Below, piece by piece: positions 834-36,161 of a stretch of DNA of 64,000 nt. The translations under genes were made by a program, and so were the position numbers. The notes below the pieces were generated by a model, which searched no databases, was not told the DNA's origin, and saw nothing but the letters and a program-made list of their open reading frames with translations. This stretch comes from Squalus acanthias (lineage: Eukaryota): contig CM059432.1 in the NCBI GenBank assembly GCA_030390025.1, forward strand, positions 66,280,001 to 66,344,000. The letters are read 5' to 3'. Position 1 is the stretch's first letter. The number at the start of each line of letters is the position of its first letter.

Positions 834-1435
834 ACCACATAATAGACTAATGAATAAGGTTAGAGAATGCGGAGTCAGGGGACAAGTAGCAGAATGGATA
901 GCTAACTGGCTTCAAGATAGAAAGCAGAGAGTAGGGGTAAAGGGTAGCTATTCACAGTGGCAGAAGGTGGGAAGTGGTGTTCCACAAGGATCAGTGCTGG
1001 TACCACTGTGGTTTACAATTTATATTAACGAATTAGACTTTGGAATCAAAAACACAATTTCTAAATTTGCGGATGACACCAAATTGGGGGGGATAGTCAA
1101 TACTGAGGAGGACTGTAACAGATTACAGGAGGACATTAATAAACTTGCAGAATGGGCATATAATTGGCAAATGAAGTTCAACACAGATAAATGTGAGGTA
1201 TTACATTTTGGAAAGAAGAATAAGGAGGTCACTTATTACTTGGAGGGTGCAAGTCTGAGTGGGGTAGAAGAACAAAGGGATCTCAGAGGACAAATACACA
1301 AATCACTAAAAGTAGCGACACAGGTTAACAAGGCCATAAAAAAAGCATGATGTGGAGATGCCGGCGTTGGACTGGGGTGGACAAAAATGAGAAGTCGCAC
1401 AACACCAGGTTATAGTCCAACAGATTTATTTAATT

Positions 1436-1473
1436 TTACAAGCTTTCGGAGCTGTCGCTCCTTCCTCAGGTAA
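1436..1473 (-). ncRNA. Minimal hammerhead ribozyme motif (inverted copy)
   Basis: Exact reverse complement of 1746-1783. Confidence 0.8.
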
Positions 1474-1745
1474 GTTAGCAGTGAGAGAATCTCCCAGAAT
1501 TCACAATTTAAACACAGACAAAATCTATTCAAATCTTTCCCTACATCAAAGACACACTAAGAGCACAAGAACCAACACAAATTGACAGGATATGCAGCCA
1601 GCAGGTGGTTTGACACGTTGGACCCCCTGGGACACATCTCATTGTCTTGGCTGTGCTCTTAGTGTGTCTTTGATGTAGGGAAAGATTTGAATAGATTTTG
1701 TCTGTGTTTAAATTGTGAATTCTGGGAGATTCTCTCACTGCTAAC

Positions 1746-1783
1746 TTACCTGAGGAAGGAGCGACAGCTCCGAAAGCTTGTAA
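1746..1783 (+). ncRNA. Minimal type-I hammerhead ribozyme motif (Penelope type)
   Basis: TTAC CTGAGGA A GGAGC gaca GCTCC GAA AGCT T GTAA: CUGANGA and GAAA cores, stem I TTAC/GTAA, stem II GGAGC/GCTCC, palindromic AGCT in place of stem III. Confidence 0.8.
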
Positions 1784-4714
1784 AATTAAATAAATCTGTT
1801 GGACTATAACCTGGTGTTGTGCGACTTCTCATAAAAAAAGCAAACCAAGCACTAGGGTTTATTTCTAGAGGGACAGAATTGAAAAGTAATGAAGTTATGC
1901 TGCACTTGTATCGAACCTTAGATAGACCACACTTGGAGTACTGCATACAATTCTGGTTGCTATATTATAAAAAGGATATAGAGGCACTGGAGAGGGTGCA
2001 GAGAAGATTAACAAGGATGATATCAGAAATGCGAGGGTATACCTATCAGGAAAGGATGAACAGGCTGGGTCTCTTTTCTCTTGAAAAGAGAAGGCTGAGG
2101 GGTGACCTAATAGAGGTCTTTAAAATTATGAAAGGTTTTGATAGAGTAGATACAGAGAGAATGTTTCCACTTGTGGGGAAGAACATAACTAGTGGCCATC
2201 AATATAAGATAGTCACCAAGAAATCAAATAGGGAATTCAGAAGAAACTTCTTTACCCAGAGAGTGGAGAGAATGTGGAAATCGCTACCACAGGGATTGGT
2301 TGAAGCGAATAGTATAGATGCATTTAAGAGGCAGTTAGATAAGCAGAGATTGCTAGATTTGTGGATATTAAGGGAATCAAGGGATATGGGGATAGTGCAG
2401 GAAAGTGGAGTTGAGGTAGAAGATCAGCCATGATCTTATTGAGTGTCGGAGCAGGCTCGATGGGCCGAATGGCCTACTCCTGCTCCTATTTCTTATGTTC
2501 TTAAGTTCATATGAGGGAGAAGGGAATAGAGGGTTATGCTGATAGAGTTAGATGAGGAAAGACGGGAGGAGGCTCGAGTGGAGCATAAATGCCGGCATGG
2601 ACTGGTTGGGCCAAATGGCCTGTTTCTGTGCTGTATATCCAATGTAATCCTATGTAATTTATTTAAAATGTCACGTGAATACATTAATGTTTGGCTGCTA
2701 ATGTCGCCAATGATAATTTCTAGGTTAGAACTTGTACAAAGGGTTTCACTCTTGCATCAACAAGCTGGAAGGGATTGCAAGAAAGGATGATTGAGGCCTG
2801 GACGCTGGACTCATTAATGAAACAGCTAGCACTGTAATGGGAAGATGGTCAGGCTGCTATTCTGGAATAATGAAATCCAACCTTTCTGGTGATTTTGTGA
2901 ACAGTATGGGTAGGATCTGTTTTTACTTGCATTAAACTGACCAGCCTGGATTTTTTGATTGTCATTTAAAATGAATCAATTAACACCAATGTTAAATTAA
3001 CACTGATCCAAAAATCTAGGTTACTTTCTCTCTCAGCCTGTAGTGTTAAGGGACAGATAATAGTGGATACTCAGATAACAGAGATGAATTAAGAGCCGCC
3101 ATGTCATTCAAGTCCACTTTAACCGCAACTGTTTCCCCTGACTATTCCTAGCCTTCTCCTGGACAAAACTGCTATACAGGTACGGCAACTAATTTCCACC
3201 AATGATAAGTCCATATAGCTGCACTCAGCAAAATCCCAGCTCCCATTCCTACCCTGTTGTAATGATTTATTTTTGTTCAAATTTAAATCAGAATTACACA
3301 AATATTTTAAAATATGGTTTTGAAAAGAAATTAACTGCAACTCAAACATTTAACAACAGAAGCTTTGATTTATACTTTGCTTGCAGGAAATTAGACTTGC
3401 AATGACCGATGCTGGATGGCATTACCTGGGGAGAAGGTATGACAACACATGGTCAGTTATCCAGGGTTTTATGCCTAACATGACTGGGTTGCTGAAGCTC
3501 CAACCTTCAACTGATGGAACCACCATTCAATGAGGTATGGTGTGTGTCCATGCTGCATTCAGACAGATGGTGGCAATACAGTCAAGCATTTTATGGTGAG
3601 TTGTGCTGTTCACTGTGCTGCTCTTGAGGAGCCGCTGGTACCTGCCATCCACCCACACTTGTCAGTTCTCTAACTTGATAGTGACTATCATCCTGGCGGG
3701 TGCTGGGGGGAGGGGGCGGGGGGCGCGGAATGAGGCAATTGGGTCTCTTTGGGTAAAAGTGGCTCCAAGATGATACACCAGCGATGGAAATTTAGAACTA
3801 AGTCAACTACTCTGTGGCAGACTTGGTAATCTGATACTTGCTCTCGGGAGGTCTGCAATACTCTAGGTTACTTTTGCTGATTGAACAGTCCAGTCTGGCT
3901 CACTATTGAAATCTAGAGGGATAGACCTGTCACCAAGGGTTGGGATTCTTTCATTCAGCTCTAGATAACCATGCAAACTAATGTTCTAATGGGTAGGGTG
4001 GTTGCTAGCTGGACAAGCAGCAGGAAGTTTACCAATGTTCGTTACTGATATGTTGCATGATTTTAGCTAGTTAAATTTAACAGTATCCCTGTACACACTT
4101 AGGGTCCCTAAGCCTTGGCTCTACCAACCTGCGTCTAAACCCTCAGGAGTTAGATAAGTGGGGTGTTTCCCAATGGGCTATAGTGCACTCCAAGTTCAGT
4201 AAATGGATACCACAGGAGCAGATTTCTCAATAGCTTGATTTGGAGCCCCTTAAAGATGGTGATTGGTTTCCATGCATGTCCAACATATGGCTGACCAAAC
4301 AGTATCAAAACAACCAAGAACTTACATGGTCCTGCACTGCATCAATTTGTAGATTAATCCATATTCAGTGTAACCGATATGTACAATTTTGATTATGCAT
4401 AATTACAATTTGCCAGAATATTCAAAATTCACTGTTGAAAATCTCTGCCGACAGCATGAATTGGTTAATGCCAGCATTAAAATAATGAGCAGATAAACTT
4501 CATATAAACATGGTAACACTCTGTTACGAATATCATATAGCATTTCAATTAATAAAATAGTTAAAAGTAGCCTCCATTTTTAAAAGTTTACAGAGACAAA
4601 TTTCCTTCGGTGACTTAAATCTGGTGGGAAGAATTCCTACGTTCACTTTTTCAAGCAAAATCATAAAAGTGTTCTTAAAAAAAACTTCTATAATTTTGTT
4701 AGAAATAGTGATAT

Positions 4715-4879
4715 GGGAGTAATTTGAACTTAACCTGCCAGGCAGGAAATGAGCAGGTTCAATCTGACCGCCCTTTAACACCCTGCCCAATTTTATTCCC
4801 CATCGGGCAGGGTGTAAAATGGATGGTCTGACTGAACCCCCTCATGTCTTACTCAGTGGGTTAGGTTCACATTAACCCC
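4715..4879. mobile_element. Short, degraded palindromic MITE (Harbinger-like ends)
   Basis: Ends gggagtaatttgaacttaacc / ggttaggttcacattaacccc, central stem acaccctgccc...gggcagggtgt. No clean TSD. Confidence 0.55.
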
Positions 4880-6127
4880 AAACTTTCTGCTACATTTAAA
4901 CTGTTGCTAGAATATAGCAACCAAAGGCAATCTTTCTCTATGTGGCACTGTTACCTTTCCTTACATCACAGATTCTGTTAAATAATACAAATCAAAATAC
5001 TTCCTCAAACAAAGCATAATATTTTTTTTTGCCTTAACACCCCAGTCACTAAGTTGTAATTTCAACTTACCTTTAACATTGCACTCAAGTCAAAAGTAGA
5101 ACATATTTGTAAAACTTGCCTTAACTCCAATATAAAAGCCTCTGCCGGAAATGTTGAAACAAACTTGCTGACCAACTTTGTGTTCTGTTATTTACTCGCT
5201 GTACAAAGAAAATGCTGTCTATTCAAAACACATTTCTAAACTCGTTCCACAGAAACTGAGTGAACAAATGATTTCATGCCCTGAGCTGTAGTCATCCGAT
5301 GAGGCCCAGTGATAGCTCCAGGGCATGGAACCAAGTGACACGGGCAGTAATCTTTACAGGGAGCTTTTTGTGCACTCTTTCGAAAACTTTTTTCAAACTT
5401 TGACAGTGATCTTTTCACTCATTCCTTTCAAAGTGCTCTACTTCAGTCTTCAGCTGTCATTATGTATTTTATTTTTCACTTTTGTCATTGCACATTTTGA
5501 AAATTAAAAAAAATCTCCCCCTCTATCTCCCACCTTCTCCTGGAACTGCTAATTCTTGCTGGGGTATGGTTCCAGGAGTGCAGATCACCACTCAGTATCT
5601 CACCCACATGGACATTATTCATGTGTGAGAATGAGCAGTAACTGGATAGTAATGAGGAACAGAAAGCCTGGCTGGGTTTTTCCCTCCTTGGCCCAGTGGT
5701 GCTCTGGCCAACTGTAGGCTTTGAATTTCCTGTGTGGCGCATCTTGGAATTTATACCCTAAAATGCCCCCATTCCCACGCTCATTTTCCCGATCTCAAGA
5801 TGCATCGGAATTCCCTGCCAATCTAATTAGAATATGTGTAAAAATGGGTGTAAATTAGTGTAAACAATCGGGTGCTCGAGGAAATATATATATATTTCTT
5901 CTTTAAGTATGAAAATTAAAGTTTCACCTCATTCACCCATCATTCATGCACATTAGCATAGCATGTTTAAGAACCTGCAATCGGAGAAGCTTTTCAATAT
6001 TTAATGTGACTTATACTTATACCATAAAAATGCATTCAAAGAAACAGAAAATACAGTGCAGGTCTCAGTGAAGATACATTTTTAAATAGCTCAAAAACTG
6101 CAGATAAAACACCAGAAAAATGACTAT

Positions 6128-7852
6128 GGCTGCGATTTGACGAACCTCGGCGAGTCCGTGGTGTACGATGTCAGTGGCGGGTCCCGACCCCGCTGCTGGT
6201 TCCATCCCGGCCTCTGAAATGAATTTCCCCTGATTGGGCTTGTTAAGCCCGCCCAGCGAGTTTCCCAGCCAATTAGAGGAAGTGGGTCTGGTGACGTCAT
6301 TTGATGACGTATCATCAGCCGGTATCCTTAAAGAGACCATGGCCAACTTTAATTTGACATTTGTGCTGTCAGTGTTCCACAGCATTGAGGTGCTGCAAAC
6401 ACTGACAAGCACTGCACAGAGGTGCACGGCTGCACCCAGGTTCTCCCATGTCTCCCTCCCTATGCTTATAGAGGGAGTCACAGCACGTAGGGTGGTCCTC
6501 TTCCCTTCCCATGGGCGGAAGAGACCTCCCCAGGAGATCAACACAGCCTGGTTGCAGATTGCACAGGAGGTCACAAGCAGGGATGTGGTCAGGAGGACCT
6601 GGATGCAGTGCTGCAAACGTTTCAATGATCTCAGTAGTTCACAAAATGTTAGTACAAAACCACACTCAGCCTCATCCTGCTGTGCCTCTCATCACGTCCC
6701 CATCACTCTGCCTTCCCTACCCTACTCCTGCACACCCTTACTCACACCAACTTATCTTGCACCTCCACCCATCCCTCTCTATCAATATTATCACATCCCC
6801 ATCTCACTAGCCACCTTTCACACTCACCTTCATCCTAGTCCAATCATACCAACTACAACACACAAGGGTAGGCATTTGGGTGTTTTATGCAATGTTCATG
6901 TAAAGTTTCTGTTAATGTGGTGTCAAACATTGAAACCTTTATTTTCAATACTTTGCATTCTTGGACACATTTGTGTGCACCTTTGGAAGTGGCTTAGTGA
7001 GTTGCATTGAATGGTGAGACATAATGGTACCCCCCGCAATGGCGATGAGTGTGAAAGGAATGGCTTGGGCATTGTAGAGATGCTTTATGGTGTTGGTGTG
7101 GAGTGGTGTCAACCTGGCGCATCATGTGAAGTAAATCTGGCCATGTTGAGGCCATCTCTGGCCTCCCGGACAGCACTGTGGTCGGGTGCTGATGCCCTGT
7201 GTCTTGTGCAGCATCAGTTGATTGCGGAGAAGGTTGGTGTTGTTGTTGTTGGTGCTGCTGGTGTGCCTGGTGCTGCTGGTGTGTCTGGTGCTGCTGTTCG
7301 TGGTGGGATTCTGAGGACCAAAGTGAGAGTTTCAAGGGCACCCATGCTGATGGAATAGATGGCAGGTGAAGTAGAGATGACAGAAGCGATCTGTCAATGG
7401 TGGGGAGGTAATGAGGTCAGACTGGATGGAGACTCGTGTAAAGACTTGCAACATCCTGCATCTGGAGTGGAAATGCAGTTTAGAGAAGCTAATGGTTAAG
7501 GAAACATTTCTCAATCAGCTGGGAGCTTTGACTTGACATTTGAAGCTGTCAACTCATCAGCTGATTCAATGGCAAGTGACCTCCTGCCTCAGCTTCACAG
7601 ATGAGGCCTAGGCACAGCAGGAAACTGGTGGGGCAACCTGTCAAATCCAAAAAGCTGGGAAAATCCACTAATGATTTTAATTGCCTCCCCCGCCGCTGCG
7701 TGTCGGGTCTGCTCAAAGCTGACAGACCCACCATTTGGTAAAGGCACGTGGAGGCGGGTTTGCAGCGGGGTCCCGACCCACTGGGAAAAAAAACACTTTC
7801 CCACCCGACCCGCCACCGATCGTGCCTGCTGACCTCCTGCAAAATTCAGCGC
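6128..7852 (+). mobile_element. Internally deleted PIF/Harbinger element (Myb/SANT exon 1 on +, nuclease N-terminus on -)
   Basis: TSD TAT (6125-6127, 7853-7855). Imperfect TIRs ggctgcgattt / aaaattcagcgc. Myb/SANT-like peptide APRFS...WLQIAQEV...RRTWMQCCKRFNDL. The Q/H-rich minus-strand ORF 6994-7341 resembles 41610-41978. Confidence 0.85.
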
Positions 7853-9084
7853 TATGTTTCCTGCTGCACCTGATAATCTGGTTGTAATTTTAAGAGAGTC
7901 TCTGTGCAAGCGCAGAGGAAACTTTCAGGAAACTTGTATATGAGGCTCTATAACTTGGGGCATGGCCAGTTTTATGGATGGAGATTGAATTGGTCAGAAT
8001 TGATAGATCGATAGCATACAAGATTGAGGAAATTTGGGCATATTGTAGTTATGCGTGTAACTCACTTAGGCCCAAAATTCCATGATCTTTTAAGTCACAT
8101 TATTGGTTTGCGCCTTGGTTACATGTGTCTCTGGGTGCAAAAATGGAGGAAATGCAAGGCGGCAATGCTTAACCCCTGTCCCAGCTAAGATTAGCGAACT
8201 CACCACAGACTAGAATAAAACCTGGGGCCTTTTGGTCTGCATGAGTTTACCTTGCCATACATTTACCCACTTAGTCATCAGGCATGCTGCATTTTAAACA
8301 TTTATATTATTGAATGTAACTTTTTTTCCCTATTTTATATTTTCTCACTCTTACAGTTGCTGAGATAGGGTTTAACATGGAATATGAGATAAGGTGATGC
8401 ATATGTAATACTTGGCAGGCAAAATTGACTTTTTATTGTAACACAATCATTGCAGCATAGTCAGAACAACTATATCTGAAGATCATAAAGTATTGCTGGA
8501 ACTAATAATATATACATCATTAATCTGACGGAGATAAGCAATAGTACACAAGAGGCCAGTGGCAACTCACACCCCATACCAGCCACAAATAGTTAATTCT
8601 TTAGACCACCAGAGATATTTAAGTACACTGGCCCAACAGACAACCACAGATGCAACAGACCCCAGAATATGTTCCCACGCTGATTATAAGGCCATACACC
8701 ACCTAGCCTGGATTTTAAATGGCCTGTGAAGAAGGGGAGTGTGAGAAGGTGCGAAAGCTAAACCTTCAGCTCTAAAGCCTCCACCTATGTTACGAGGAGA
8801 CTTTCCCTCTAATTACATTTCCCCTGGCAGGAAGTAGTCAGTCTCTGATTTGCACCTTCCCACTACATTGCTGCTGTGATTAGCAACTCACTATAATGGT
8901 AGGCACCAGGCGCAAGTCCAAATCTCACCACAATGTAGTATCATGTATTGGTGCTAGCACACTATATAGCAGATGGGCCTTCTGCTATCCCAGAGCTCAA
9001 GGTCTTAGCACATTAACTCATCTGTTGCCTAAAAAGAATAGGCAACTGTGAATAAATGCAAAGCTCGCTATTAAAGTGCATCAT

Positions 9085-19361: not shown

Positions 19362-20168
19362 GGGGACGATTTTGCCAGCCCTGGGGAGGCGGGTTTGGAG
19401 GCGGGACTGCTGGGAAAATGGCAGAATTTAGGGGCGGGTTGACCCGCCTCCATGCCATCATGCCAGGAGGCGGGTAGCCGTCCCGCGCCGGGTCCTGTCT
19501 CCTTGGAGGCGGGCAGGGATTACATCCACTTAACTTCCTGTTAATAGGTAGTTAACAGGCAGAAAATAGGATTATCCCCATTTTGCCCACATAAGTGCGG
19601 CCTTCCCGAAGGCTCCAAAACCCGCCAGGGTCACCGAGGCGAGTAGTGGGTCTGCGGGGGTCTGCAGGGTCCAAAAGTGTGCTGTGGAGGTGAGTGATGG
19701 GCGCAAGTGTGGAGAGGTGAGTATCTGAGGTAAGTGCAAAGTGTTAGTAAAAGTGTATTTACCTTTGTTTCTTCCTGCAGGCTTCAATCGGTGGGCATGC
19801 GGAGAGTCTCGCACCTCCGCGGTAGAGATGACAGATGGCCATTGCATTCTCCAATTCAACAACCATCTAATTTCTACAAAAGGAAGAGGTTTGATGAGGT
19901 CTTGAATTCAAGAACTCATCAAACTACAGAGAATGTCAGTGTTTGACAGCTTCACAGAGCTATCAAACGATGACAATTCATCTGTCAAAAATTGACGTTC
20001 TCTGTAACTGGCTTTCCCTTAATTGGCCTGCAAAGCCCGCTGGGCAGGCTTAACAAGGTCAATCAAGGGAAAATAGCGTGGGTTGGCCAGAAGTTGATGG
20101 AGGCGGGACTGAAACCCGACAAGTGGGAGTCCCGCCTCCAAAAGCTCCCCATTGGCAAAATCCAGCCC
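19362..20168. mobile_element. Harbinger-type MITE inside CR1
   Basis: TIR ggggacgattttgcc / ggcaaaatccagccc. TSD AAT (19359-19361, 20169-20171). CR1 sequence rejoins across it. Confidence 0.88.
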
Positions 20169-20245
20169 AATACTCCAATTGAGGCTGAACCAGTGTTTTA
20201 TAAAGGTTCATCATAACTTTTGTACTCTATGCCTCTATTTATAAA

Positions 20246-20427
20246 ATTGAGAGGTCGCACAACACCAGGTTATAGTCCAACAGTTTTATTTTAAATCACA
20301 AGCTTTCGGAGTTACAACTCCTTCGTCGGGTGAAGTGAGGAGATACAGAATCGTCAAAGCATATATAGAACGTCGGTGTCGATATGCGCGATCTTCTTGG
20401 CGATACACCGGCATCTCCGCATCATGA
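20246..20427 (-). mobile_element. Short Penelope-like insertion with hammerhead-like motif (20296-20333)
   Basis: 14-bp TSD cctctatttataaa (20232-20245, 20428-20441). Minus-strand TCAC CCGACGA A GGAGT tgta ACTCC GAAAGCTT GTGA. 5' end tcatgatgcggagatgccgg, as in the 1348 copy. Confidence 0.85.
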
Positions 20428-22262
20428 CCTCTATTTATAAAGCCCAGGATCCTGTATGCTTTTTTAACTGCTTTCTCAGCCTGCCCTGCCACCTTCAACA
20501 ATTTGTGCACATATACCCCCAGGTCTCTCTGTTCTTGCACCCCCTTTAGAATTGTACCCTTTAGTTTATATTGCCTCTTCTCATTCTTCCTACCAAAATG
20601 TATCACTTCGCACTTTTCTGCATTTAATTTCATCTGCCACATGTCCACCCATTTCACCAACCTGTCTCTGCCTTCTTGAAGTCTATCACTCTCCTCCTCA
20701 CTGTTCACTATACTTCCAAGTTTTGTGTCATCTGCAAATTTTGAAATTGTGCCCTGTACACCCAAGTCCAAGTCATTAATATATATCAAGGAAAGCAGTG
20801 GTCCTAGTACCGACACCTGGGGAACCCCACTCTATACCTTCCTCCAGTCCGAAAAACCATTCACCACTACTCTCTGTTTCCTGTCACTTAGCCAGGTTCG
20901 TATCCATGCTGCCCTTTTATTCCATGGGCTTCAACTTTGCTGGCAAGCCTGTTATGTGGCACTTTGTCGAATGCCTTTTGGAAATCCATGTACATCACAT
21001 CAACTGCATTGCCCTCATCAACCCTCTCTGTTACCTCATCAAAAAACTCACACAAGTTAGTTAAACACGATTTGCCTTTAACAAATCCGTGCTGGATTTC
21101 CTTGATAAATCCACACTTGTCCAAGTGACTGTTCATTTTGTCGCAAATTACCTTTTCTAAAAAGTTTCCCCACCACTGAGGTTAAACTGATTGACCTGTA
21201 GTTGCTGGGTTTATCCTTACACCCTTTTTTGAACAATGGTGTAACATCTGCAATTCTCCAGTCCACTGGCACCACCCCTGTATCTAAGGAGGATTGGAAG
21301 ATTATGGCCAGTACCTTTGCAATTTCCACCTTTACTTCCCTCAGCATCGTAGGGTGCATCCCATCCGGTCCTGGTGACTTATCTACTTTAAGTACAGCCA
21401 GCCTTTCTAGTACCTCCTCTTTATCAATTTTTATCCCATCCAGTATCTCAACTACCTCCTCTTTCACTATGTCTTGGGCAGTATCTTCTTCCTTGGTAAA
21501 GTCAGATGCAAAGTACTCATTTAATACCTCAGCCATGCCCTCTGCCTCCATGCGTAGATCTCCTTTTTGGTTTCTAATTGCCCCCCCCACCCCCTTACTA
21601 CTCGTTTACTATTTACATGCCTATAGAAGACTTTTGGATTCCCTTTTATTTTTAGCTGCCAATCTATTCTCATACTCTTTCTTTGCCCCTCTTATTTCCT
21701 TTTTCACTTCCCCTCTGAACTTTCTGTATTCAGCCTGGTTCTCACTTGTAATCTCAACCTAACATCTGTTATACGCCCCCTTTTTCTGCTTCATCTTACT
21801 CTCTATCTCTTTCGTCACTCATGGAGCTCTGACTTTGGTTGCCCTACCTTTCCCCCTCATGGGAATGTACCTTGACTGTACCCGAACCATCACCTCTTTA
21901 AAGGTAGTCCAGTGTTCGATTACAGTTTTGCCTGCCAATCTTTGATTCCAATTTACCCAGGCCAGATCCGTTCTCAACCCACTGAAATTGGCCCTTCTCC
22001 AATTAAGTATTTTTACTCTAGATCGCTCCTTGTCCTTTTCCATAGCTAATCTAAACCTTATGATACTATGATCACTATTCCCTAAATGTTCCTCTACTGA
22101 CACTTGCTCCACTTGACCCACCTCATTCCCCAGAACCAGATCCAGCAATGCCTCCTTCCGCGTTGGGCTGGAAACATACTGCTCAAGAAAGTTCTCCTGA
22201 ACACACTTCAGAAATTCATCCCCTTCTCTGCCCTTTACACTATTACTATCCCAGTCTATATT

Positions 22263-23021
22263 GGCCCAGAAATTCCGTTCGTAGCCCTCCCGCGGGCGGA
22301 GGGCTGCGATTTGGAAAAATCTCCACCTGGACCGGAGGGCTCCTGGGAGGCGCAGAATTCCATTGCTGGGCCTCTTCAATCTGCCGCTGTGCAGGGCACG
22401 CATATCCCAGGGGCACAGGTAGTTCGCAGCGTCCCTGGGATCATGTGGGCCATGGGGAGCCAATCAGAGCAGGGAATCTCCATTCATAGATTTGACAGGA
22501 AGACCTGTCAAATCTATGAATAGAGATCAGCCCCAAAACCTAAGTAAAACTTCAAATAAATTTAAAAAATAACATCACATTTTTAAAATGACTATAAATT
22601 ACATAAATTAACTATTTTAAACAAAAATTTAAATTTTTGAAAAAAATAATTAACGTTTTTAACGGTGCTAAAAAATAAACTTACCTTTCTTTAAAGTATT
22701 TTAAATGATAAATCAGTGGAAATTTTATTTTTTAAACTTTCTTCAACTATTAGCCTGGTAAAAGCAGGCCTTGCGCCTGCTTTTCTAGGCGCAACTGTTT
22801 CCGACTTACCTGGACTGAAGCAACTGTGAAAAAAACGGAAGTTTCAGCCGTACGCGCTGCCTATCCGGCGCAGGCGTTTGACCTGTCAAGCCCTTTCTTC
22901 ACAGAATGGAAGTTCCGGTTTCCAGCGCATGCGCAGTGCATGCGTAAAACCGGCACTTTCGTTGGCCCTACGGGTGAGTACACAGCGCGTACACACCTGT
23001 AGGGAATGGAATTTCTGGGCC
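22263..23021. mobile_element. Harbinger-type MITE inside the CR1 endonuclease region
   Basis: Perfect 14-bp TIR ggcccagaaattcc. TSD ATT (22260-22262, 23022-23024). Same family as 10025-11528. Confidence 0.92.
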
Positions 23022-24629
23022 ATTAGGATAATTGAAGTCCCCCATTATCATGACTCTATAGTTCTTGCACCTCTCTGTAATTTCCCTGCAAATTTGCTCC
23101 TGTATATCCTTCCCACTAGTTGGTGGCCTATAGAATACACCTAGTAGTGTAATGGCACCTCTACTGTTTCTTAACTCTAACCAAATAGATTCAGTCCTTG
23201 ACTCCTCCAGGACATCCTCTCTCTCTAGCACTGTAATATTCTCCTTAATCAATACTGACACACCACCTCCTTTCTTTCCTTCCCTATCTTTCCTGAACAC
23301 CTTATATCCAGGAATATTTAGTACCCAATCCTGCCCTTTTTGAGCCAGGTCTCCGTTATCGCTACGACATCATATTCCCATGTGGATATTTGTGCCTGCA
23401 GCTCATCAACCTTATTTACCACGCTTTGTGCGTTTACACACATGCACTGTATACCTATCTTAGACCTTCTTGTATTCTCTCTTAGTCTGACCCCACCTAA
23501 TACCATACTATTTCTTACTCTAGTGCTATCTGTCTCTCCCAGTCCTTTGTGCACCTTGTTTCTCCTTTCTAATTCTACAGCCTGGTGCCCATCCCCCTGC
23601 CAAATTAGTTTAAACCCTCCCCAACAGCACTAGCAACCTGCCCCCCCCATGAGGATATTGGTTCCGGCTCTGTTGAGGTGCAACCTGTCCGGCCTGTACA
23701 AGTCCCACCTCCTTCAGAACTGGTCATAATGTCCCAGAAATCTAAAGCCCTCCCTCTTGCACCATCTCACCAGCCACGCATTCATCTGGTCTATCCTTCA
23801 ATTTCTATATTCACTAGCTTGTGGCACCGGGAGTAATCCGGAGATTACTACCTTTGAGGTCCTGCTTATTAATCTCTTTCCTAGCTCCCTAAAATCTGCT
23901 TGCAGGACCTCATCCCTCTTTCTACCTATGTCATTGATACTGATATGGATCACAATCTTTAGCTGTTCACCCTCCTCCCTCAAAATGTTCTGCAGCCGCT
24001 CAGTGACATCCTTCACCCTGCACCAGGGAGGCAACATACCATCCTGGAATCATGTCTGCGGCCGCGGAAACACCTGTCTGTTCCCCTAACTATTGAATCC
24101 TCTATCACTATTACTTTCCCGAATTTCCTCCTCCCCCCCGTACAGCTGAGCCACCTGTGGTGCCGTGGACTTGGCTCTGGCTGTACTCCCCAGAGGAACC
24201 ATCGCCCTCACCAGTATTTAGAACAGAATACCAGTAAGATAGATGAATCCAGTTATCACAATTTAAGTTAAAAGGTAAATTTAGGAAAGGTTTATTTTTT
24301 TTTAGGAAAGTCGAGACTTTGAAGTCACCTAATTGAATTTTTCAATTTATGAAGAGAATTGGAAAATCTGATTCAGGCAAATTGTTCACCACAATGGAAG
24401 GTTCCAATACCAGAGGACACAAACTAAAATTTGGGAAAAAGCGAGTAAGAAGGAAGTCAGACACCTTTTTTATTAACCATGTGGTAATAGAATTAAAATA
24501 TAATTTACCACAGTGGTCTTTAAAATAGACATTATAAATTAGGTCAAGAGACAATCGGACATTGTTTGGAAAGAAAAAGAATTGAGGGACATGAGGGATG
24601 ATTCTGCAATCTGCTGCCGGTCGGTATCA

Positions 24630-26029: not shown

Positions 26030-28269
26030 AGGGGAAAAATTTGTTTTCGACCATTTTGTGGCGCTAACATCACCTGGGCGCTAACTTTAGCGCCCGGCGC
26101 TAATTACAGCCGGCGACTGCAAAATTGAGTTTTAGCACCCCTAGAGGGAAGTGGAGCGTTAAATCAAGTGCTACACACTCCTCTTAGGGCGCTAACGTCA
26201 GAGCGGGGCGCAACCGCAGAACGCTACTCAAGCTCAGGCGCTGTCAATTACAAGTACTCAGACAGACTGTCGCCTTCCAGTTCTTAAAGGGGAGGGTCAA
26301 TCATGCTGCACAGCTTCACTCTGATAATTGCTGCTTATGAACTGGGCCTGCAAGGAGGTGCAATCCATCAACCACAAATCTCATGGCTGATCAGAGGCCC
26401 AGGGAGAAGGCTCGCCGGTTCAGCGACCAGGCATTGGAGGTTCTGGTCGCGGCCGTGGAATGCCGACGGGCAGTTCTCTTCCCAGACACTGGCAGGAGGC
26501 CATTGCCGCAGGACTTCAGGAGGATGTGGAGGGAGGTCGCCCAGTATGTCTCGGCCAGAAGTGCGGTCCACAGGACTCCCACCCAGTGCTGCAAGAAGTT
26601 CAATGACCTTACTCGGGTGGTCAGGGTGAGTACATGCTTCAAAAATCTGTACATGCCACCATTTCAACCTCACTCTATGCACAGACGGTATAAATCGCCA
26701 AATCCCCAACACTCACCCACCAACTATGCCCACCTGCTAAAACTGACATCCACATCTCACGCCTTGCATACATTAACAGCTATTCAACTATGGTAGGCAC
26801 ATCTGCCAAACACGTGGCTGCACACTCACTCACACGCTGTCCTTTTTCTTGCAGGCCAAGCTTGCTCATAACAGGTGGGAGCAGCAACACACGGGAGGAG
26901 GTCAGGCAGAGCTGCAACCCCTTACAGACCTGGAGGAGCGAATGCGCATCATCATTGCGGTCCAGGTCGTGGGTGCTATGGCGGTCGGAGATGTCGACCC
27001 CCTTGGGGACAACAATGGTATGTTCATCACCACTTTCTCTTTTCTCATACCACTTCTCCCTCACATCACAAGCCCTTCCCACTTTCCATCTAAGTATACT
27101 GTCTCCATTCTTTGCTCCCTTCCTGTCCCCCTCCCCTGATGTTAAACCCACTCTTGTGCCTTTATGCTTTCAGATAATCAGCCACCATCTGAGCAGCCTG
27201 TCCCTCAGCCTCCCAATGGCAGCGACACGGAAGAGGAGGAGGAACAATAAGCCAGAGCCTCACTGCCTGTGTCTCCCGAGGGCGAGACATCAGATAATGG
27301 GACCATGCGGTCGCTGGAGGGGAGCCGAGGAAATGTGTCTGATGTGGGTGAATCTCAAGGACCCAGCGGGCTGCAGCAATGCCATAGGGAAAGGGAAGCA
27401 CGAGTTCTGCTGCACAGGATTTGGATGAGGACGTCGATGTGGAGGCATTGACCAGACGGGCAATGGGCATGCAATGGCAAGGGTGCCCGAGAGCATGGAT
27501 GCACTGGCTAGAAACATGGAGGAGTCCACCTCCAGCATTGCACTCATCTCTGCGCAAACCATTGAGCCTATCCTTGACAGTTTGCTAGGGATGGTTGCCT
27601 TGCAGAGAGACCGTGGGGACCCAGACCTCATGCCGCGTGTAATGGGTGAGGTGGCAGCAGCTATTGCAGCACAGGCCGAGGCAACGCAATGGCTTAGTAC
27701 TGTAATGGAGTCAGTGGTTGGTGACATCCAATCTCAGATTGCTCTCATGCAGTCCAGTGCCAATACAGCCCCCATTAAGTGTTGGAAACGTTGCACTATC
27801 AAATGTAACTCAAATGAAAGTGATACATTTTTGTCAGTTGCAAAACTCCTTCAAGTAGAAAAAGCTCAAATCAGTAAAATCACCTGTCTACTTCTGTCAA
27901 ACTGACAAGGCAGCATTGTTTGCCGACTAAAAAAAAAACGGATGTTCACGCCTTTATATAGAGCTCCTCCAGTACTCAACCGACTGCAAACCGCCTCTTC
28001 TACCTGTCGTTGCTAATGGCAGGCGCTGAGGCAGGGGACGAGAATTAATTTCCAGTCCGGGGCGCTACCAGGGCGATGCGCGGCCAGATGCCGTCACGCT
28101 CTCCAGCCGCAGGTGGGCGTGGTAATAGCGGTTAGCGCCGCCGCAAACCACCAGGTGAATTTCGCCGGCAGCGTTAGCATCGCAGCGCCCGGGCAGTAAG
28201 TCGCTAGTGCCCTGTTAGTGCCTGCCGGAGGCGCTAACTGGAGGCGCTAAGGTACCCAATGTCTAGCCC
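26030..28269 (+). mobile_element. Non-autonomous Harbinger carrying only the Myb/SANT gene
   Basis: Left end aggggaaaaatt and both subterminal regions match 10525-11255 and 42286-43092. No matching TSD found. Confidence 0.85.
26383..27770 (+). pseudogene. Three-exon Harbinger Myb/SANT-like DNA-binding protein gene (exons 26383-26625, 26855-27017, 27174-~27770)
   Basis: Exon 1 MADQRPREKARRFSDQALEVLV...WREVA...RTPTQCCKKFNDLTRVVR|GTGAGT. Acceptor ttgcag. Exon 2 AKLAHNR...TGGG...G|GTATGT. Acceptor tttcag. Exon 3 has an in-frame TAA and a frameshift. Confidence 0.85.
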
Positions 28270-28270
28270 A

Positions 28271-28969
28271 AAAATTGTCTTCGGTCCCCGCCACAAACTC
28301 TGTTCCCTAGCCACTGACTCCTTCCCTCTCCCTGGCAACTTTCTGAAGCTGAACCAGACTTTTCACAACCTTGTATTAGATTTGACCCAGAAATGAGCTC
28401 CCGACCACATATCCGTGCCATCAATAAAACTGCCTATTTCTATCTCTGTAACATTGCCCGATCCACCCCTGCTTCAGCTCATCTGCTGCTGAAACCCTCA
28501 TCCATACCTCTGTTACCTCTAGATTTGACTATTCCAATGCACTCCTGGCCGGCCTGCCAAGTTCTACCCTCCATAAACTTGAGGTCATCCATAACTCAGC
28601 TGCCCGTGCCCTAACTTGCACCAAGTCCTGTTCACCCATCAGTTCACTGCTCACTGACCTACATAGGCTCCTCCAATTCTGGCCTCTTGAGCATCCCTGA
28701 TTTTAATCACTCCACCATTGGCGGCCGTGCCTTCAGCTGCCAAGGCCCTAAGCTCTGGAATTCCCTCCCTAAACATCGCCGCCTCTCTACCTCTCTTTCC
28801 TTTTTTAAGACGCTCCTTAAAACCTACCTCTTTGACCAAGCTTTTGGTCATCTGCCCTAATATCTCCTTATGTGGCTCAGTGTCAAATTTTGTTTAATAA
28901 CGCACCTGTGAAGCACCTTGGGATGTTTTACTATGGTAAAGGCGCTATACAAATACAAGTTGTTGTTGT
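28271..28969 (+). mobile_element. L2-like LINE 3' end
   Basis: Degenerate 'VTSRFDYSNALLAGLP' and 'AFS...LWNSLP...FLRRSLKPT/LKTYL' segments. Tail aaggcgctatacaaatacaagttgttgttgt. Confidence 0.85.
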
Positions 28970-29506
28970 AAGCTAGGATTTTTTTTCACCTACAATAAAA
29001 GTGATCAAATATTGGGTTTGTTTGAGTTTTTAAGTTCTAAACATCCCACTGCACCCTCAATGCACCCCTCATCTTCAGATGTCATTAGGCTTATATTCAG
29101 GGCTGTTATTGAGTGATCAGCTTTATGAAGGCTGTATCAGATTTTGTGAAATTGTTGGTCAGTGGTTGCTAGTTTCCTAGCTTGGCATGTATGAAAAGGT
29201 CCATGATGCCAAAAGGCACTGAGACCTTGGAGAAAAAGGTGAAGCTTTCTGATTCTCTCAGTGGTGACATCATTAACACCAAGGGAACTCCCACAGGCTC
29301 ACCGTGAATACTAAATTATGGGGAAACCCAGAAGTTCTGGTACGAATGGCCATACACTACAGGTCAGGTGGGTGTTCCACAGCTCACCATTCCTGCCACT
29401 AACTCACTCAAATAGAACTGTTTCCCTCTGGAAAACGGATTCAATTTGCAGTGTAATTTGTGGGCATTAATGAAAATCTGCAAGACACGCACATGAATCA
29501 TGAGTA

Positions 29507-29870
29507 AAGAAAGAACTTGTATTTATATAACACCTTTCATTACCTCAAGATGTCCCAAAGCATTTTACATCCAATGAAGTACTTTGAAGTACAGTCACTG
29601 AGGTAATGTTGGAAACATGACACCCAATTTGCACACAACAAGGTGCCACAAACAGCAACGTGATAATGACCAGATTATCTGTTTTTAGTGATGTTGGTTG
29701 GTGATATCGGGAGAACTCCCCTGCTCTTGTTCAAATAGTGCTATAGGATCTTTTACGTCCACCTGAGAGGACAGACGAGGCCTCGGTTTAACGTCTCATC
29801 CGAAAGACAGCACCTCCAACAGGGCAGTGCTTTCTCAGTACTGCACTGGAGTGTCAGCCTAGATTTTGTG
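29507..29870 (-). mobile_element. Deu-domain SINE (SacSINE1/AmnSINE1-like), 5'-truncated
   Basis: cctcggtttaacgtctcatccgaaagacagcacctcc and gatcttttacgtccacctgag segments. Minus-strand 3' end aggtgttatataaatacaagttctttc. Confidence 0.8.
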
Positions 29871-31056
29871 AGTATTGGCAGTACTCCTACAAGAGTGTGG
29901 CACTCTCAATGCGGTTTTCAGTGCTGAGGGTGACGACACCTCGGGGGAGTGCAGTCTAGAGCGTATCCACGGCACTGTGGGGCAAATGACTGCATATGGA
30001 GGCACAGCAAAGTGTAGAACTGCAGTAGTCATAGGGGATTCGATAGTCAGGGAGATAGACAGGCGTTTCTGCAACTGCCGATGTGATTCTTGCATGGTGT
30101 GTTCCCTGGTGCCAGGGTAAAGTACCTCACTGAGAGGGTGCATAACACTTGAGGGGGGTAGGAAAAGAGCCAGAAGTCGTGGTCCATGTGGGAACCAATG
30201 GCATAGGAAGGAAAAAGGTTGACATCCTGCAGTCGGAGTTTCAGGTGCTGGAGAAATGGTGCAGGAGGGATGACTTCAGATTCCTGGGCTATTGGGAACA
30301 GTTCAGGGGGCAGGAGAGACCTGTTGAAGGTGGACGGGTTGCACCTCAACAGAGCTGGGACCACAATGTCCTTGCATGAAGGTTAACTAGTGCTGTGGGG
30401 GAGGGTTTAAACTAATTTGGCAGGGGCATATAAATGGGCACCAGGATGAAGCATTAGAGAGGAGAATCAAGGACTAGGAGAGACAAATAGCATTAGAGGA
30501 AAGAATATTTCAGAAATAGGAGGGCTCAGACAGGGGCAAATGCAAGGCATTTGGATTGGTCTGGCGTGCATGTACGTAAATGCACCTAGCATGGTAAATA
30601 AGGTTGGTGAGCTGCAGGCACATGTTGGCACATAAGACTATGATATAGTGGCAATAACAGAGACCTGGCTCAAAGAAGGGGAGGATTGGGAGCTTAATAT
30701 TCCTGGTTACAACGTATTCAGGAAAGATAGGGAAGTAAAAAAAGGAGGGGGGCTGGCAGTATTGATCAAATAAACTATTATAGCCCTGGCGAGGGATGAT
30801 GTAATTGAGGGGTCAAAGAGAGTCTATCTTGTTAGAATTGAAGAACAATAGAGGAGTTATTACGCTACTAGGTGTATACTATAGGCCACCAAAAAGTGCG
30901 AAGGAGATAGAGAAGCAAATTACAGAAAGATGCTAGAATTACAGAGTAGTGATAATGCGGGACTTCAATTATCCTAATATAGACTGGAATAGTAACAGTG
31001 TAAAGAGCAAAGACGGGGAGGAGGGCTAACTTCAGTGAGTTGAGAAGGGATCTAGC

Positions 31057-33766
31057 CAAAGTTCCCTCTAATTTTTTTATACTGAGCGGGCCTCAAACTT
31101 CTTTGAGCGCGGCCTTTTAAACCATGGGCAGATTTTACTACAACAACAACTTTTACAACAATGATAGCAACAGCAACCACTTAAAAGCATATATACAGTA
31201 ATGCCATATTGCCACCCCACCGTTTCAAATCATGAGACAATCAGACAAGGTTCGATTCAAGTTTAACATAACTTCTCTGCTTTTGAATTCTATTCCTCTA
31301 AAAATGAGGTCAATGCTTTATTTGCACTTTTATGGCTTTTTTAACCTGCGTTGCTACATTTAATGATTTGTGAATCTATACCCCTAGATCCCTTTGCACC
31401 TCTACTCCATTTAGACTCTTATTTTCCAAGGGGTAGGTCGCCTCCTTATTCCTCCTACCAAAATGCACCACCTCACACCTATCTATATTGAAATTCATTT
31501 GTCATTCTGCAAGTTTGTTTACAGTAGAATTAATTAAATGCTTTTACAAACATGTACAACTCTATTAAAAAAATTACTTGTCAGAAATGACCGGGATATA
31601 AAAGAACTGCATAATAATGCATTAACACTTCAGAAATGTCACCCTGTTACACAGTTGTGCATAGACATAAACAATCCAAAAGCCCAAGGTAAGCTGAAAG
31701 AGGCATATCTATTCATGCAATTTGTATTAATTTTATAGTTTTCAACGTATTATCCCATCCCTCATGTCACTATAGCAGTGGCTGCACAAGCATCAGGAGT
31801 AGCGGCTTTCCTATACATGTTGTATGTCCACATCAGTACAGTAATTAGAATATTATTCACAATGCAACCAGACACCCAACAAATATAAAGTGCTGTAGTT
31901 CTTTAGTTCACAGTATTAAAAAGAATTGAAAAAAAATGGTATTTTCAACTTCAATCACTTCCATTAATAAATGTGGTCTTCTTGAACCAGCACCCCCCCC
32001 GCATGTAACATGTCAGAAATGCAGCACTTATTCACAAGTGCAGAAAAACACATACACAATTTGTGTTACCAAATTAAAAACAAAAAGTAGGAAAAGCTAT
32101 GATTTAACAGAAATAAACACTCATCTTTCTTCCTGGACAGAAGAACCAATCAGACTGACTTGGAAATGTTTACTAGTATGGTGACATAAAGATGTTAATT
32201 TACAAATTTTGCTTCTAATGTTTTGCTCTCAAACATTCTCCCCAATATTAATCCCTGCTCTTAAATGTAAGGAAGTCTGACTACGATTGTACAGGGCTTT
32301 GGTGAGACCACATCTGGAGTACTGTGCACAGTTTTGGTCTCCTTATCTGAGGAAGGATATACTTGCTTCAGAGGCGTTGCAACAAAGGTTCACTAGATTG
32401 ATTCCTGGGGTGAGAGGGTCGTCCTGTGAGGAGAGATTGAGTAGATTGGGCCTATACTCACCGGAGTTTAGAAGAATGAGAGGTGATCTCATAGAAACAT
32501 ACAAGATTCTGAGGGGGATTGACAGGGCAGATGCTGAGAGATTGTTTCCCCTGGCTGGAGTGTCTAGAACTAGGGGGCATAGTCTCAGGATAAGGGGTCG
32601 GCCATTTACGACTGAGATGAGGAGGAATTTCTTCACTCAGAGGGTTGTGAATCTTTAGAATTGTCTACCCCAGAGGGCAGTGGATACTGAGTCGGTGAGT
32701 ATATTCAAGGCTGAGATAGATAGATTTTTGGATTCTAAGGGAATCGAGGGATCTGGGGATCGGGCGGGAAAATGGAGTTGAGGTCGAAGATCAGCCAGGA
32801 TCTTATTGAATGGTGGAGCAGGCTCGAAGGGCCGTATGGCCTACTCCTGCTCCTAATTCTTATGCTCTTATGTTCTTAAGTGAAATGTTTCAGCCTTTGC
32901 ATGTTAAAATTGGGGACCAAAGTGAATGGCCCAAAAACTGGTGTCAAATCAAACAGTTGATCCAAAGGCATTTGAGCCATAAACAAAGGGTAGCAGTTAT
33001 ATTTGGGCTATGTACTACAGTATCATTGACATCACTGGCACAACAGTTTTTTTTAAAGGGCCAATCGGGTCCCTTGAAAAGGGGGACTGATTTTCTGGTA
33101 ATGCTTGCATTTTTGGCTAACACCCATGCCTGGACCCTTTGGCTAATTGCTTGTTCAGCTAGGATATGCAGGCATACTGGCTGCTTTGCATAAACCAGGC
33201 TGAGAATGAGGGAATTCCTGACATCAGGGGCCATTTTTGGGGCAGCTGGAAGTTCTGTCTCAAACAAGTCCCCACAGAAACTATCAACGAGACCTGTTGA
33301 ATCCACATCCTGAGACAATTTCTGGCCTCTCCAAAGGACTTCCAGGGGACTTACCAGTGTGGCCAATAGCCCTGCAGATTAGTAAAATAATGTTTCTTTA
33401 ACTTAGCACTACGCTTGTTACTGGCCAGGACTGCGTGCTGACAATCACTCAGGTTGCTGAGGTACTTACTGACTTGCCTTTCTTTGACTGTCTAATAACC
33501 CCCTCTGGCTGCACTCACACTCCCGTAGCACACTGAAGCAGTGGCTGGACTGGCCTGCCAATCACACGGCTGTCAATCACACAGCCTGCCAATCACATGG
33601 CTGCCAGTGAGGTGCGGTTATGGCACAGCTGCCTGCCTCGAGTCAGCGTCCCCGCAAAGCTTCAGTGTGCCACGGGAGCGCGAGTGCGTGGCCCATTTAT
33701 TTAACTGCTCGGCCCTATCAAGAGTGTTGCGTGGCCGCGCACGCGCACAACTTCAGCGGAACAGTG
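31057..33766. mobile_element. Non-autonomous hAT-like DNA transposon
   Basis: 8-bp TSD gatctagc (31049-31056) / gatctggc (33767-33774). Imperfect TIRs caaagttccctctaa / ttcagcggaacagtg. Contains CR1 pieces at ~31250-31520 (-) and 32263-32878 (+). No transposase recognised. Confidence 0.75.
32263..32878 (+). mobile_element. 5'-truncated CR1
   Basis: ORF 32287-32658 YRALVRPHLEYCAQFWSP...FFTQRVVNL, CR1 3'UTR, tail ttcttatgctcttatgttct. Confidence 0.93.
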
Positions 33767-35056
33767 GATCTGGCCCAGGTAGATTGGAATCAAAAATTGG
33801 TAGGCAAAACAATCATTGAAAAATAGGAGGATTTCAAAGAGAAGATGGTTCGGGTACAGAATGGACACATTCCTACAAGGGAGAAAGGAAGGGCATCCAA
33901 AACCAGAGCTCCCTGGATGACAAAAGATGTAGAGATTAAAATGAGACAGAAAAAGGAGGCTTATGACAAATGTAAGGTTTGTAATACAGTAGAGAACTAA
34001 GGTGAATATAGAAAGTACAGAGGAGATCTATAAAACAGAATAAGAGATGCAAAGAGAGTGTATGAGAATAGATTACCAGCTAACATAAAAGGGAACCTAA
34101 AAGTCTTTCATAATCATATAAATAGTAAAAGGGTAGTTAAAGAAAGGGTGGTGCCAATTGGGAACTAAAAAGGATGTGCTGTATCATTCCATGATTCTAT
34201 GATCAGACGTTTTCTCACAGGATACAATGAAATTCAGAGGAAGACTTGCCCTAGACAGCTTCAGCAACCTCTTGGTCACTAGCTCAAGAAGCACATTAGG
34301 CCTCATGATGAGCATGCTTCCCCAACCAAGAAAGCACTATTCCTGAGCTCAGCCAATGTCACTTTTGAGCCGATCAGTCAATTAGGGCAAAATTTTTACC
34401 TTTGAGTGGGTTGAAGTGCGGGGTGGGATTGGGGGGGTAGTGGTGGTGGCTGCCTAGCGGGTCGCTGTCACGAACGGTTCATCAGCGCACTCTCCACTGG
34501 GTGTTAAACTTAACTAGATCACTTGACTGAGTCATGTGTGTTTCCCAGCCAATTAAATGGAGCGGGTCTGATGACGTCACAGATTCACAGATGACTTGAC
34601 TTCAGCTCAACTATTTAAAGGGGAAGTGTACAGATGAGAGTTGAAGGTTGCTGGAGGTGGTCAAGAGGTGCTTGTAAGAGGTGCCTGTCGGTGTTACAGC
34701 CAATACTTTGACTTAGACTGTGAGGGTGCAATCATTTAGAGGCAATGATGCAGTCTGAGTGCCAGAAGGCAGCGCCCAGGTTTTCAGATTCCTTCCTGGA
34801 AATTCTGCTCTGGGGAGTGAGAGCAGGGAAGGAGGTCCTCTTCCCTGGTGATGGCAGGAAGAGGCCAGCCAGTGAAACCCAGAGGGCATGGCTGGAGATT
34901 GCACAAGAAGTGAGCAGCAGGGATGTTGTCACCCACTCCTGGATTCAATACAGGAAGAGATTTAATGATAGAACATAGAAACATAAAACCATAGAAACAT
35001 AGAAAAATAGGAGCAGGAGTAGGCCATTCAACCTTTCGAGCCTGCTCCATCATTCA

Positions 35057-35377
35057 TAGAAACATAGAAACATAGAATCTAGGAGCAGGAGTAGGCCATT
35101 CGGCCCGTCGAGCCTGCTCCACCATTCAATACGATCATGGCTGATCATCCAAATCCAGTACCCTGTCCCTGCTTTTAATCTCCACAGTACACATATCCCA
35201 CCCTACCCCCGTAACCCCACGTATTTAATTCCCCCTAACATATCCCATCCTATCCCCATAACCCCACATATTTAATCCCCCCCTAACACTAAGGGTCAAT
35301 TTATCATAGCCAAATTAACCTAACCCGCACATTTTTGGACTGTGGGAGGAAACCGGAGCACCCGGAGGAAACCCACT
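35057..35377 (-). mobile_element. 5'-truncated V-SINE with a long CR1-derived tail, inserted in a CR1 3'UTR
   Basis: TSD attca (35052-35056, 35378-35382). Nearly identical to 41255-41570. Confidence 0.88.
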
Positions 35378-35898
35378 ATTCAATATGATCATGGCTGATC
35401 CTCTATCTTAATACCATATTCCCGCGCTCTCCCCATACCCCTTGATGCCTTTTGTATCTAGAAATCTATCTATCTCCTTCTTAAATATATTCAGTGACTT
35501 GGCTTCCACTGCCTTCTGTGGTAGAGAATTCCAAAGGTTCACCACCTTCTGAGTGAAGAAATTTCTCCTCATCTCAGTCCTAAATGTCCTACCCCGTATC
35601 CTGAGACTGTGATCCCTCATTCTAGACGCCCTAGCCAGGGGAAACATCCTCCCTGCATCCAGTCTGTCTAGCCCTGTCTGAATTTTATATGTTTCAATGA
35701 GATCCCCTCTCATTCTTCTAAACTCTAGTGAATACAGGCCTAGTCGACCCAATCTCTCCTCATACGACAGTCCTGCCATCCCAGGAATTAGTCTGGTGAA
35801 CCTTTGCTGCACTCCCTCTATGGCAAGTATATCCTTTCTTAGGTAAGGAGACCAAAACTGCACACAGGTGTGGTCTCACCAAGGCCCTGTATAACTGT

Positions 35899-35981
35899 TC
35901 ACCTGAGGAAGGAGCGATAGTTCCGAAAGCTTGTGATTTCAAATAAAACTGTTGGACTATAACCTGGTGTTGTGCGACCTC
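35899..35981 (+). mobile_element. 83-bp Penelope-like insertion with hammerhead motif (35899-35936)
   Basis: TSD taactgt (35892-35898, 35982-35988). TCAC CTGAGGA A GGAGC gata GTTCC GAAAGCTT GTGA, then aataaa and gttggactataacctggtgttgtgcgac. Confidence 0.88.
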
Positions 35982-36161
35982 TAACTGTAGTAAGACATCC
36001 TTGCTCCTGTACTCAAATCCTCTTGAAATGAAGGCCAACATACCATTTGCCTTCCTAACTGCTTGCTGCACCTGCATGTTTGCTTTCAGTGGCTGGTGTA
36101 CAAGGACACCCAGGTCCCGCTGTACATCAACATTTCCCAATCTATCACCATTTTAGTAATA

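Follow-up and report, generated by a model that had tools for sequence, protein, structure and literature searches.

R2 and Tx1 are examples of target-specific non-LTR retrotransposons, which insert repeatedly, to the exact nucleotide, into one multicopy repeat; most of their copies are found in that one target and in one orientation. The shark element described here shares with them the nucleotide-exact re-use of one multicopy repeat. It differs in that 34 of 289 sampled copies (12%) lie in the segment concerned and 255 outside it, and in that both orientations are used there (18:16).

In structure, the element resembles the endonuclease-bearing (EN+) Penelope-like elements (PLEs) of the clades Neptune and Nematis, which are marked by a CX2-5CxxC linker (PMC8557442). 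As far as the passages of that paper used here describe them, the likeness extends to a reverse transcriptase (RT) with a C-terminal GIY-YIG domain (here a putative one, recognized by eye), the linker, pseudo-LTR tandems, an inverted 5′-truncated copy, a tail of 30–40 bp that is often at one end only, and a hammerhead motif. The Neptune linker has been tied, as a hypothesis, to a bias for microsatellites (PMC8557442). By comparison with what those passages report, the targets here are palindromic, dispersed and accompanied by a 12-nt duplication, and the ones we list are not microsatellites; also, the one-end tail rule is strict here. The same source names target choice, cutting and inverted copies with a one-end tail as an open problem of PLE biology (PMC8557442).

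Biochemically, a close system is PAc, the Poseidon protein of Anolis carolinensis, which in vitro nicks and extends both strands, uses two adjacent RNA start sites and has been modelled as a dimer (PMC11167929). In the parts of that study drawn on here, the points in common are the use of both strands, two reverse-transcription starts bounding the tail, a predicted dimer and an AT-rich cut region, whereas PAc reportedly prefers 5′-ATT-3′ and primes at non-homologous RNA (PMC11167929). In the shark element, the motif is instead an extended palindrome, the stagger is fixed and the junctions show short microhomology. For target choice, the parallel is the Drosophila P element and its staggered-cut palindromic target model, in which, in the sections of the source consulted, hotspots follow from a loosely palindromic motif and there is no strand bias (PMC2577343). 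The P element, however, is a DNA transposon, whereas here a retroelement is primed from the cut target.

Three insertions in the window

The window is a 64-kb stretch of the Squalus acanthias genome (64,000 nt). A 24-mer that occurs four times in it was found in none of 100 shuffles. When element 1 was used as the blastn query, three elements were matched in the window and no fourth copy, in agreement with the earlier note, which had seen no others.

Insertion 1 (1348..1829, + strand) is a fold-back, with the short end at the right, the tailed end inverted at the left, and arms at 1387-1567 and 1652-1832. It is bounded by a 13-nt target duplication (1335-1347 / 1830-1842, +) at the KKA site, nt 2232 of our CR1 ORF2 profile, in a family 8 copy. 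A minimal type I hammerhead-like motif lies at 1746..1783 (+), with a second copy in the inverted arm. The host CR1 ORF2 fragment (832..2392, +; profile nt 1723-2774) is split by the insert.

Insertion 2 (20246..20427, − strand) is a 3′ end with the short terminus; it also contains a 33-nt piece from the 5′ region of the ORF and an inverted tail fragment (20405-20427). Its 14-nt duplication (20232-20245 / 20428-20441, +) is at the FINRG site, nt 2261, in a family 3 copy, and this is the main hotspot. One core base is changed in its hammerhead-like motif (20296..20333, −). The host ORF2 (20165..23439, −) covers profile nt 2-2342 in three pieces.

Insertion 3 (35899..35981, + strand) is an 83-nt stub with the short end only, beginning with the hammerhead-like motif (35899..35936, +). 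It has a 7-nt duplication (35892-35898 / 35982-35988, +) at the LQL site, nt 2298, and its host ORF2 (35430..37719, −; profile nt 922-2774) is in three pieces. The 7-nt duplication is likely a trimmed 12-nt one, because two other loci (L070 and L293) carry 12-13 nt there. Elements 1 and 2 run in the same direction as their host CR1, and element 3 in the opposite direction.

Translation of the hosts places the three inserts with hammerhead-like motifs after KKA, FINRG and LQL, each with its own duplication, where the earlier note had put them. The hosts are separate CR1 copies of three CR1 families, so that the proposed independence of the events also stands. That they share a CR1 segment is confirmed as well: the sites (2232, 2261 and 2298 of 2,775 profile nt) span 66 nt. 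They are, however, three sub-sites in three families rather than one shared target. Three of three in the segment has a chance of about 0.001 at 9-12% per insertion, an outcome to be expected repeatedly in a scan of many windows.

Identity of the element

In the genome of 3.71 Gb, the anchor sequence of the element is matched exactly 98,558 times. Long copies (L069, L109 and L076) contain single ORFs of 808-895 aa, and Pfam RVT_1 scored above the cut-off in both of the element ORFs tested. Downstream of the RT, a C-x4-C-x2-C linker is present in all long ORFs of the family. In EN+ PLEs the C-terminal GIY-YIG endonuclease has a CCHH motif; here the linker is followed by VYLIRC...WYIGET with cysteines and histidines, which looks GIY-YIG-like by eye, and Pfam gave no GIY-YIG match. 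The 3′ repeat continues into the ORF start in pseudo-LTR tandems (680 junction matches), a read-through seen in L231-L241. Judged on these sequence features, the element is a Neptune/Nematis-type Penelope-like retrotransposon with an RT, a linker and a predicted GIY-YIG endonuclease. Its Penelope-type nature, already suspected in the earlier note, is borne out by RVT_1, the linker, the pseudo-LTR tandems, the inverted copies with a tail and the hammerhead-like motif.

Minimal hammerheads occur in the pseudo-LTRs of PLEs, according to the part of PMC4209133 used here. In 309 ends of the shark element, the 4-bp stem I of the hammerhead-like motif is paired in 219, in two compensatory types (169 and 39), and the cleavage-site base is U in 259, C in 49 and G in 1, hence non-G in 308. 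An Rfam search gave no match for the motif, and single-strand folding energy gave no hammerhead signal (z between -0.8 and 0.1). Inspected as sequence, the motif still deserves the hammerhead label, as a putative ribozyme akin to the minimal PLE hammerheads (PMC4209133).

Sampling and mapping

For the exact anchor and four single-base variants of it, the loci sampled were the matches listed first, almost all of which lie on one contig (C1). To these were added 20 stretches, chosen at round coordinates, from C2-C12. Merging of duplicates left 239 rows, and six were removed by hand (tandem copies or second halves). The resulting 233 rows include the three window copies; L231-L242 were excluded as biased. 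A later batch, with 4 duplicates dropped, added 59 insertions, for a total of 292, or 289 without the window. Of the 292 copies, 78 had no duplication of 9-17 nt and were placed from one flank.

The CR1 ORF2 profile (2,775 nt) was built from 245 fragments. Mapping to CR1 overlooked at least two loci, L041 (an FINRG insertion) and L278. The background consisted of 140 ten-kb stretches plus the window, 1.37 Mb after excision of the element. It should be noted that 120 of the 140 stretches are centred on insertions; the share of CR1 coverage that falls in the segment is equal in the 20 unselected stretches (5.0% vs. 4.8%).

A hotspot in CR1 ORF2

With the window left out, 100 of the 289 insertions mapped to CR1 ORF2, and 34 of these fell in nt 2227-2310, which has 4.9% of the coverage (p 7e-20), an excess of about seven-fold. 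Batch by batch, the segment received 13 of 33, 10 of 21, 6 of 24, 0 of 1 and 5 of 21; the later batch alone (5/21) gives p 0.003. If the first 2 Mb, which are rich in CR1, are set aside, 244 insertions remain, and 21 of them are in the segment, which is 0.83% of bases. The short end stands directly before the family-3 FINRG site, in one orientation, in 1,145 exact junctions genome-wide, the spacing being uniform in 95 of the first 100 of these matches listed (by eye). As a control, the short end was sought genome-wide before a CR1 motif 70 nt downstream, and 0 junctions were found; by eye, that motif is present in about 4 of 10 among the first 100 of 192,784 CR1 copies listed. We estimate, rather than count, some 58,000 family-3 copies, about 2% of them with an exact FINRG junction.

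Coverage and AT richness alone might be thought to suffice, as 3′ halves of CR1 are over-represented (coverage goes from 33 to 242 along ORF2) and the duplications are AT-rich. This explanation is scarcely credible: against 29 observed of 79, coverage alone predicts 3.8 and the AT-matched null, which gives the segment 5.6%, predicts 4.4, and the contrast of 1,145 with 0 junctions stands equally against it. When flanks are mapped onto CR1 coordinates and compared with coverage and an AT-matched null, as the earlier note had proposed, there is a peak at the segment and both nulls are refuted. The 84-nt segment of CR1 ORF2 is a real insertion hotspot.

It is also very improbable that a few CR1 copies already bearing an insert were amplified, which would make the insertions non-independent. 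Some junctions are letter-identical and one family holds most of the main-site insertions, as such amplification would have it. But the 20 FINRG copies belong to different subfamilies and host families, run in both orientations and range from 108 to 2621 nt in length, and hence represent independent insertions. Moreover, the hosts are 84-96% like their family consensus, against a 1.4% difference between insert arms. An amplified composite is thus rejected for the sampled copies.

A palindromic target motif

For the remaining 189 of the 289 copies no place in CR1 ORF2 was assigned; a few of them sit in CR1 that escaped mapping or in related LINEs. Their sites have an AT-rich 12-nt duplication flanked by mirror-image half-sites, left and right flanks mirroring each other before any symmetrising. 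In 102 cleaned non-CR1 sites, from which unmapped LINEs and repeated sites had been removed, the half-site has C at -7 (48%), C at -5 (40%), T at -4 (52%), G at -3 (46%) and C at -1 (65%). The leave-one-out AUC of this motif is 0.96. Unmapped LINEs or repeated sites among the training data were considered as a source of bias, which was rejected because the result was the same once they had been removed. The duplication is 12 nt long in 86 of 214 cases, 13 in 54 and 14 in 22.

Run over the background CR1 copies, the model trained on non-CR1 sites ranks nt 2260 as the top ORF2 site (10.6 insertions expected, 18 seen), followed by 2720 (3.1 expected, 5 seen) and 1809 (2.9 expected, 10 seen). These are the three largest single-site peaks observed in CR1 ORF2, so that a motif learnt solely outside CR1 also picks the second CR1 hotspot. 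Other repeats have hotspots of their own: same sites are re-used in twelve groups in non-CR1 sequence.

The ranking also holds family by family. FINRG ranks 1 of 1952 in family 3, with 15 insertions, and 8 in family 1, with 4; KKA ranks 2 of 886 in family 8, the sole family that uses it; IEYK ranks 6 of 1625 in family 4; LQL ranks 7 of 2745 in family 1 and 21 in family 2; and SHRR ranks 1 of 2660 in family 7. Sub-sites are thus used where they rank high in their own family, which makes the three sites of the window neighbouring family-specific matches to the motif. The FISRG site of family 4 ranks 1 of 1625 yet has 0 insertions.

We therefore favor, with a probability of about 0.72, the reading that the element inserts genome-wide at a loose palindrome around a 12-nt AT-rich duplication and that the CR1 segment is often hit through good motif matches, likely because several abundant CR1 families hold near-best matches there. 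CR1 is likely a passive high-copy carrier of good sites, and the hotspot mainly sequence-driven. Homing to CR1, which the earlier note had offered as a possible cause, is doubtful: 189 of the 289 copies did not map to CR1 ORF2, orientation in the segment is balanced at 18 same and 16 opposite (51:49 over all CR1 ORF2), and the non-CR1 motif predicts the peak nucleotide.

Excess beyond the motif

The palindromic-target model predicts hotspots and strand bias is absent, but its quantitative fit is imperfect. It places 14-20% of CR1 ORF2 insertions in the segment, where 34% are seen (p 5e-7 to 6e-4). These p values disregard site-to-site scatter and overstate the evidence for an excess, because insertions at one site share one model error. 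With FINRG removed, 15 of 81 are in the segment, against 2.8-4.5 expected. The overall excess over the motif is about two-fold and sits mostly at KKA, IEYK and LQL, the neighbors of FINRG. Conversely, the predicted sites 1178 and 1457 (2.4 and 2.0 expected) have 0 insertions, and CR1 ORF2 as a whole takes 34.6% of insertions vs. 25% predicted. As the errors go in both directions, a small, position-independent model is their likely cause.

The excess persisted with wider flanks (14 nt) and with training on CR1 sites outside the segment. A sharpening exponent of 1.25 would remove it; cross-validation gives 0.92. For the unused sites, CpG in the spacer was considered (CpG 4 and GpC 16 of 1,287), a reading left unsupported because CpG and GpC are depleted alike.

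The motif might be supplemented by a local effect in which cutting at neighbors within about 50 nt is raised by a strong site or by open chromatin. The excess is indeed located 15-50 nt from the top site, and the sequence flanking non-CR1 sites has a slightly higher AT content (0.567 vs. 0.551, p 0.04). However, the motif near non-CR1 sites is not stronger (4.25 near vs. 4.46 far, p 0.28, n = 130), the SHRR hotspot with its 10 insertions has none within 50 nt, and several other windows equal the AT content of the segment (0.61). We regard a local effect as quite unlikely.

Adaptation to CR1 was also weighed. The specificity of the element could be tuned to the conserved ORF2 segment, or a cue from chromatin, CR1 RNA or protein could steer it to a safe landing place. 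The two-fold excess over the motif would be in keeping with this, as would the presence of used sites of four different families inside one 84-nt stretch and the greater frequency of one PLE subfamily in CR1 (10/18 vs. 57/224 outside the first 2 Mb). What makes adaptation unlikely is that 255 of the 289 copies are elsewhere, with no strand bias; that PLE 3′ or ORF-start RNA has no likeness to the segment (score 17.3, with 16.9-21.3 over 20 windows); and that the youngest family is used at SHRR rather than in the segment, other repeats having hotspots too. An extra cue beyond the motif may still account for the excess, because neither spill-over nor regional AT, RNA homology or CpG could explain it.

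Copy structure and a possible mechanism

The junctions form clusters at two points of the element RNA, with modes 12 and 50 nt after the anchor, about 38 nt apart. Of 160 two-ended copies, 155 are short plus tailed and none is tailed plus tailed; the remaining five were scored short plus short, all having a damaged tail by eye. Microhomology of at least 2 nt is present at 56% of short ends (22% in shuffled sequence) and at 42% of tailed ends (10% shuffled; n = 137 each). The subfamily key is common to both arms in 131 of 138 copies (30% expected), and the two arms of an insert diverge by 1.4%. Among 52 copies with the short end only, 39 have no inverted tail piece of at least 7 nt, so that second-strand priming is not visible in every copy.

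A two-headed or dimeric GIY-YIG endonuclease, as predicted for this element, would bind both half-sites and likely cut both strands. Cuts 12 nt apart would leave 12-nt 3′ overhangs. With a single RNA as template, reverse transcription could start from both overhangs, at two sites separated by about 40 nt, and the two cDNAs would then be joined into a fold-back insert. The strict short-plus-tailed pairing suggests that both cut strands prime on one RNA. Two RNAs templating both arms would also fit, if the two-RNA dimer had a fixed asymmetry, whereas two independent RNAs choosing freely would yield short-short and tailed-tailed copies. For inverted copies of rotifer elements, self-priming on an antisense template has been proposed in the part of PMC3846280 consulted; such self-priming may account for the central joint of the fold-back copies. 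A composite account, in which specificity is tuned to the conserved CR1 ORF2 stretch across families, an extra regional cue acts and a dimer uses one RNA to prime from both 12-nt overhangs, appears improbable as a whole.

Novelty and implications

The element type, the inverted structure, the tail and the hammerhead are already known. In the literature consulted, neither a palindromic target with a 12-nt stagger nor a CR1 hotspot was found for a Penelope-like element; Repbase, Dfam, supplements and subscription journals may record them. What is added here is the ranking family by family, a measurement of the excess together with four explanations that failed for it, and the count of short-plus-tailed copies.

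With its palindrome, 12-nt stagger and two priming sites, the element gives the existing in vitro assay a defined substrate to work on, and the strict short-plus-tailed rule constrains the PLE mechanism in a way that can be tested. In annotation, nested hotspots within a single repeat should be compared with a null that takes the motif into account before they are described as targeting. CR1 itself is probably little affected, because most hosts are truncated and 11% diverged. In the youngest CR1 family, long open ORF2 frames are interrupted at SHRR.

A second hotspot in CR1 ORF2

The Penelope-like element (PLE) has a second hotspot in CR1 ORF2, at nt 1807 within the RT domain, where 10 of the 100 sampled CR1-ORF2 insertions lie; loci at this position include L007, L072, L075, L119, L250, L003 and L025. 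The hosts are chiefly copies of the youngest CR1 family (0.9% diverged), whose long open frames the insertion disrupts. The CR1 ORF2 share of the sampled stretches is 48% in the first 2 Mb of contig G000:C1 (L061-L080) vs. 16% elsewhere.

Re-use of the same site by the PLE is also found in non-CR1 repeats, one of them a more distant LINE. The re-use groups are L082, L206, L270 and L181; L026, L035 and L124; L046 and L184; and others. Locus L108 is an insertion stub that recurs six times inside a tandem repeat, and three duplicate rows for it were removed from the sample by hand.

Among the sampled copies, the PLE subfamily keyed by a C after the anchor (the exact sequence used to find copies) has higher target scores (8.8 vs. 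5.3) and lies in CR1 more frequently. This subfamily may be younger or stricter.

Structure and candidate sources of the copies

In all two-ended (fold-back) copies among L001-L302, a short end is paired with a tailed end, and either can form the longer arm (short in 41, tailed in 30). Within insertion 2 (window 20246..20427, minus strand), positions 20372-20404 are a 33-nt segment of the 5′ region of the PLE ORF. Since this piece originates downstream of the tail in a tandem RNA, a template jump is suggested.

Tandem arrays with a period of ~3.14 kb, at G000:C2:211213571-211223006 and C1:223721469-223725679, are candidate full-length source copies. A second, distant Penelope-like family (~30% protein identity) is present at L082, L116, L068 and L103.

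Other features of the window

A composite of short repeats occurs twice, at 35077-35376 and 41274-41571, the copies being 97-98% identical and 6.2 kb apart. Three long ORFs, their coordinates listed as minus-strand count, lie at 6233-7007, presumably a Myb/SANT-like Harbinger-type fragment; at 38303-39347 (348 aa); and at 48737-49547, which we take to be an RTE-like LINE fragment.
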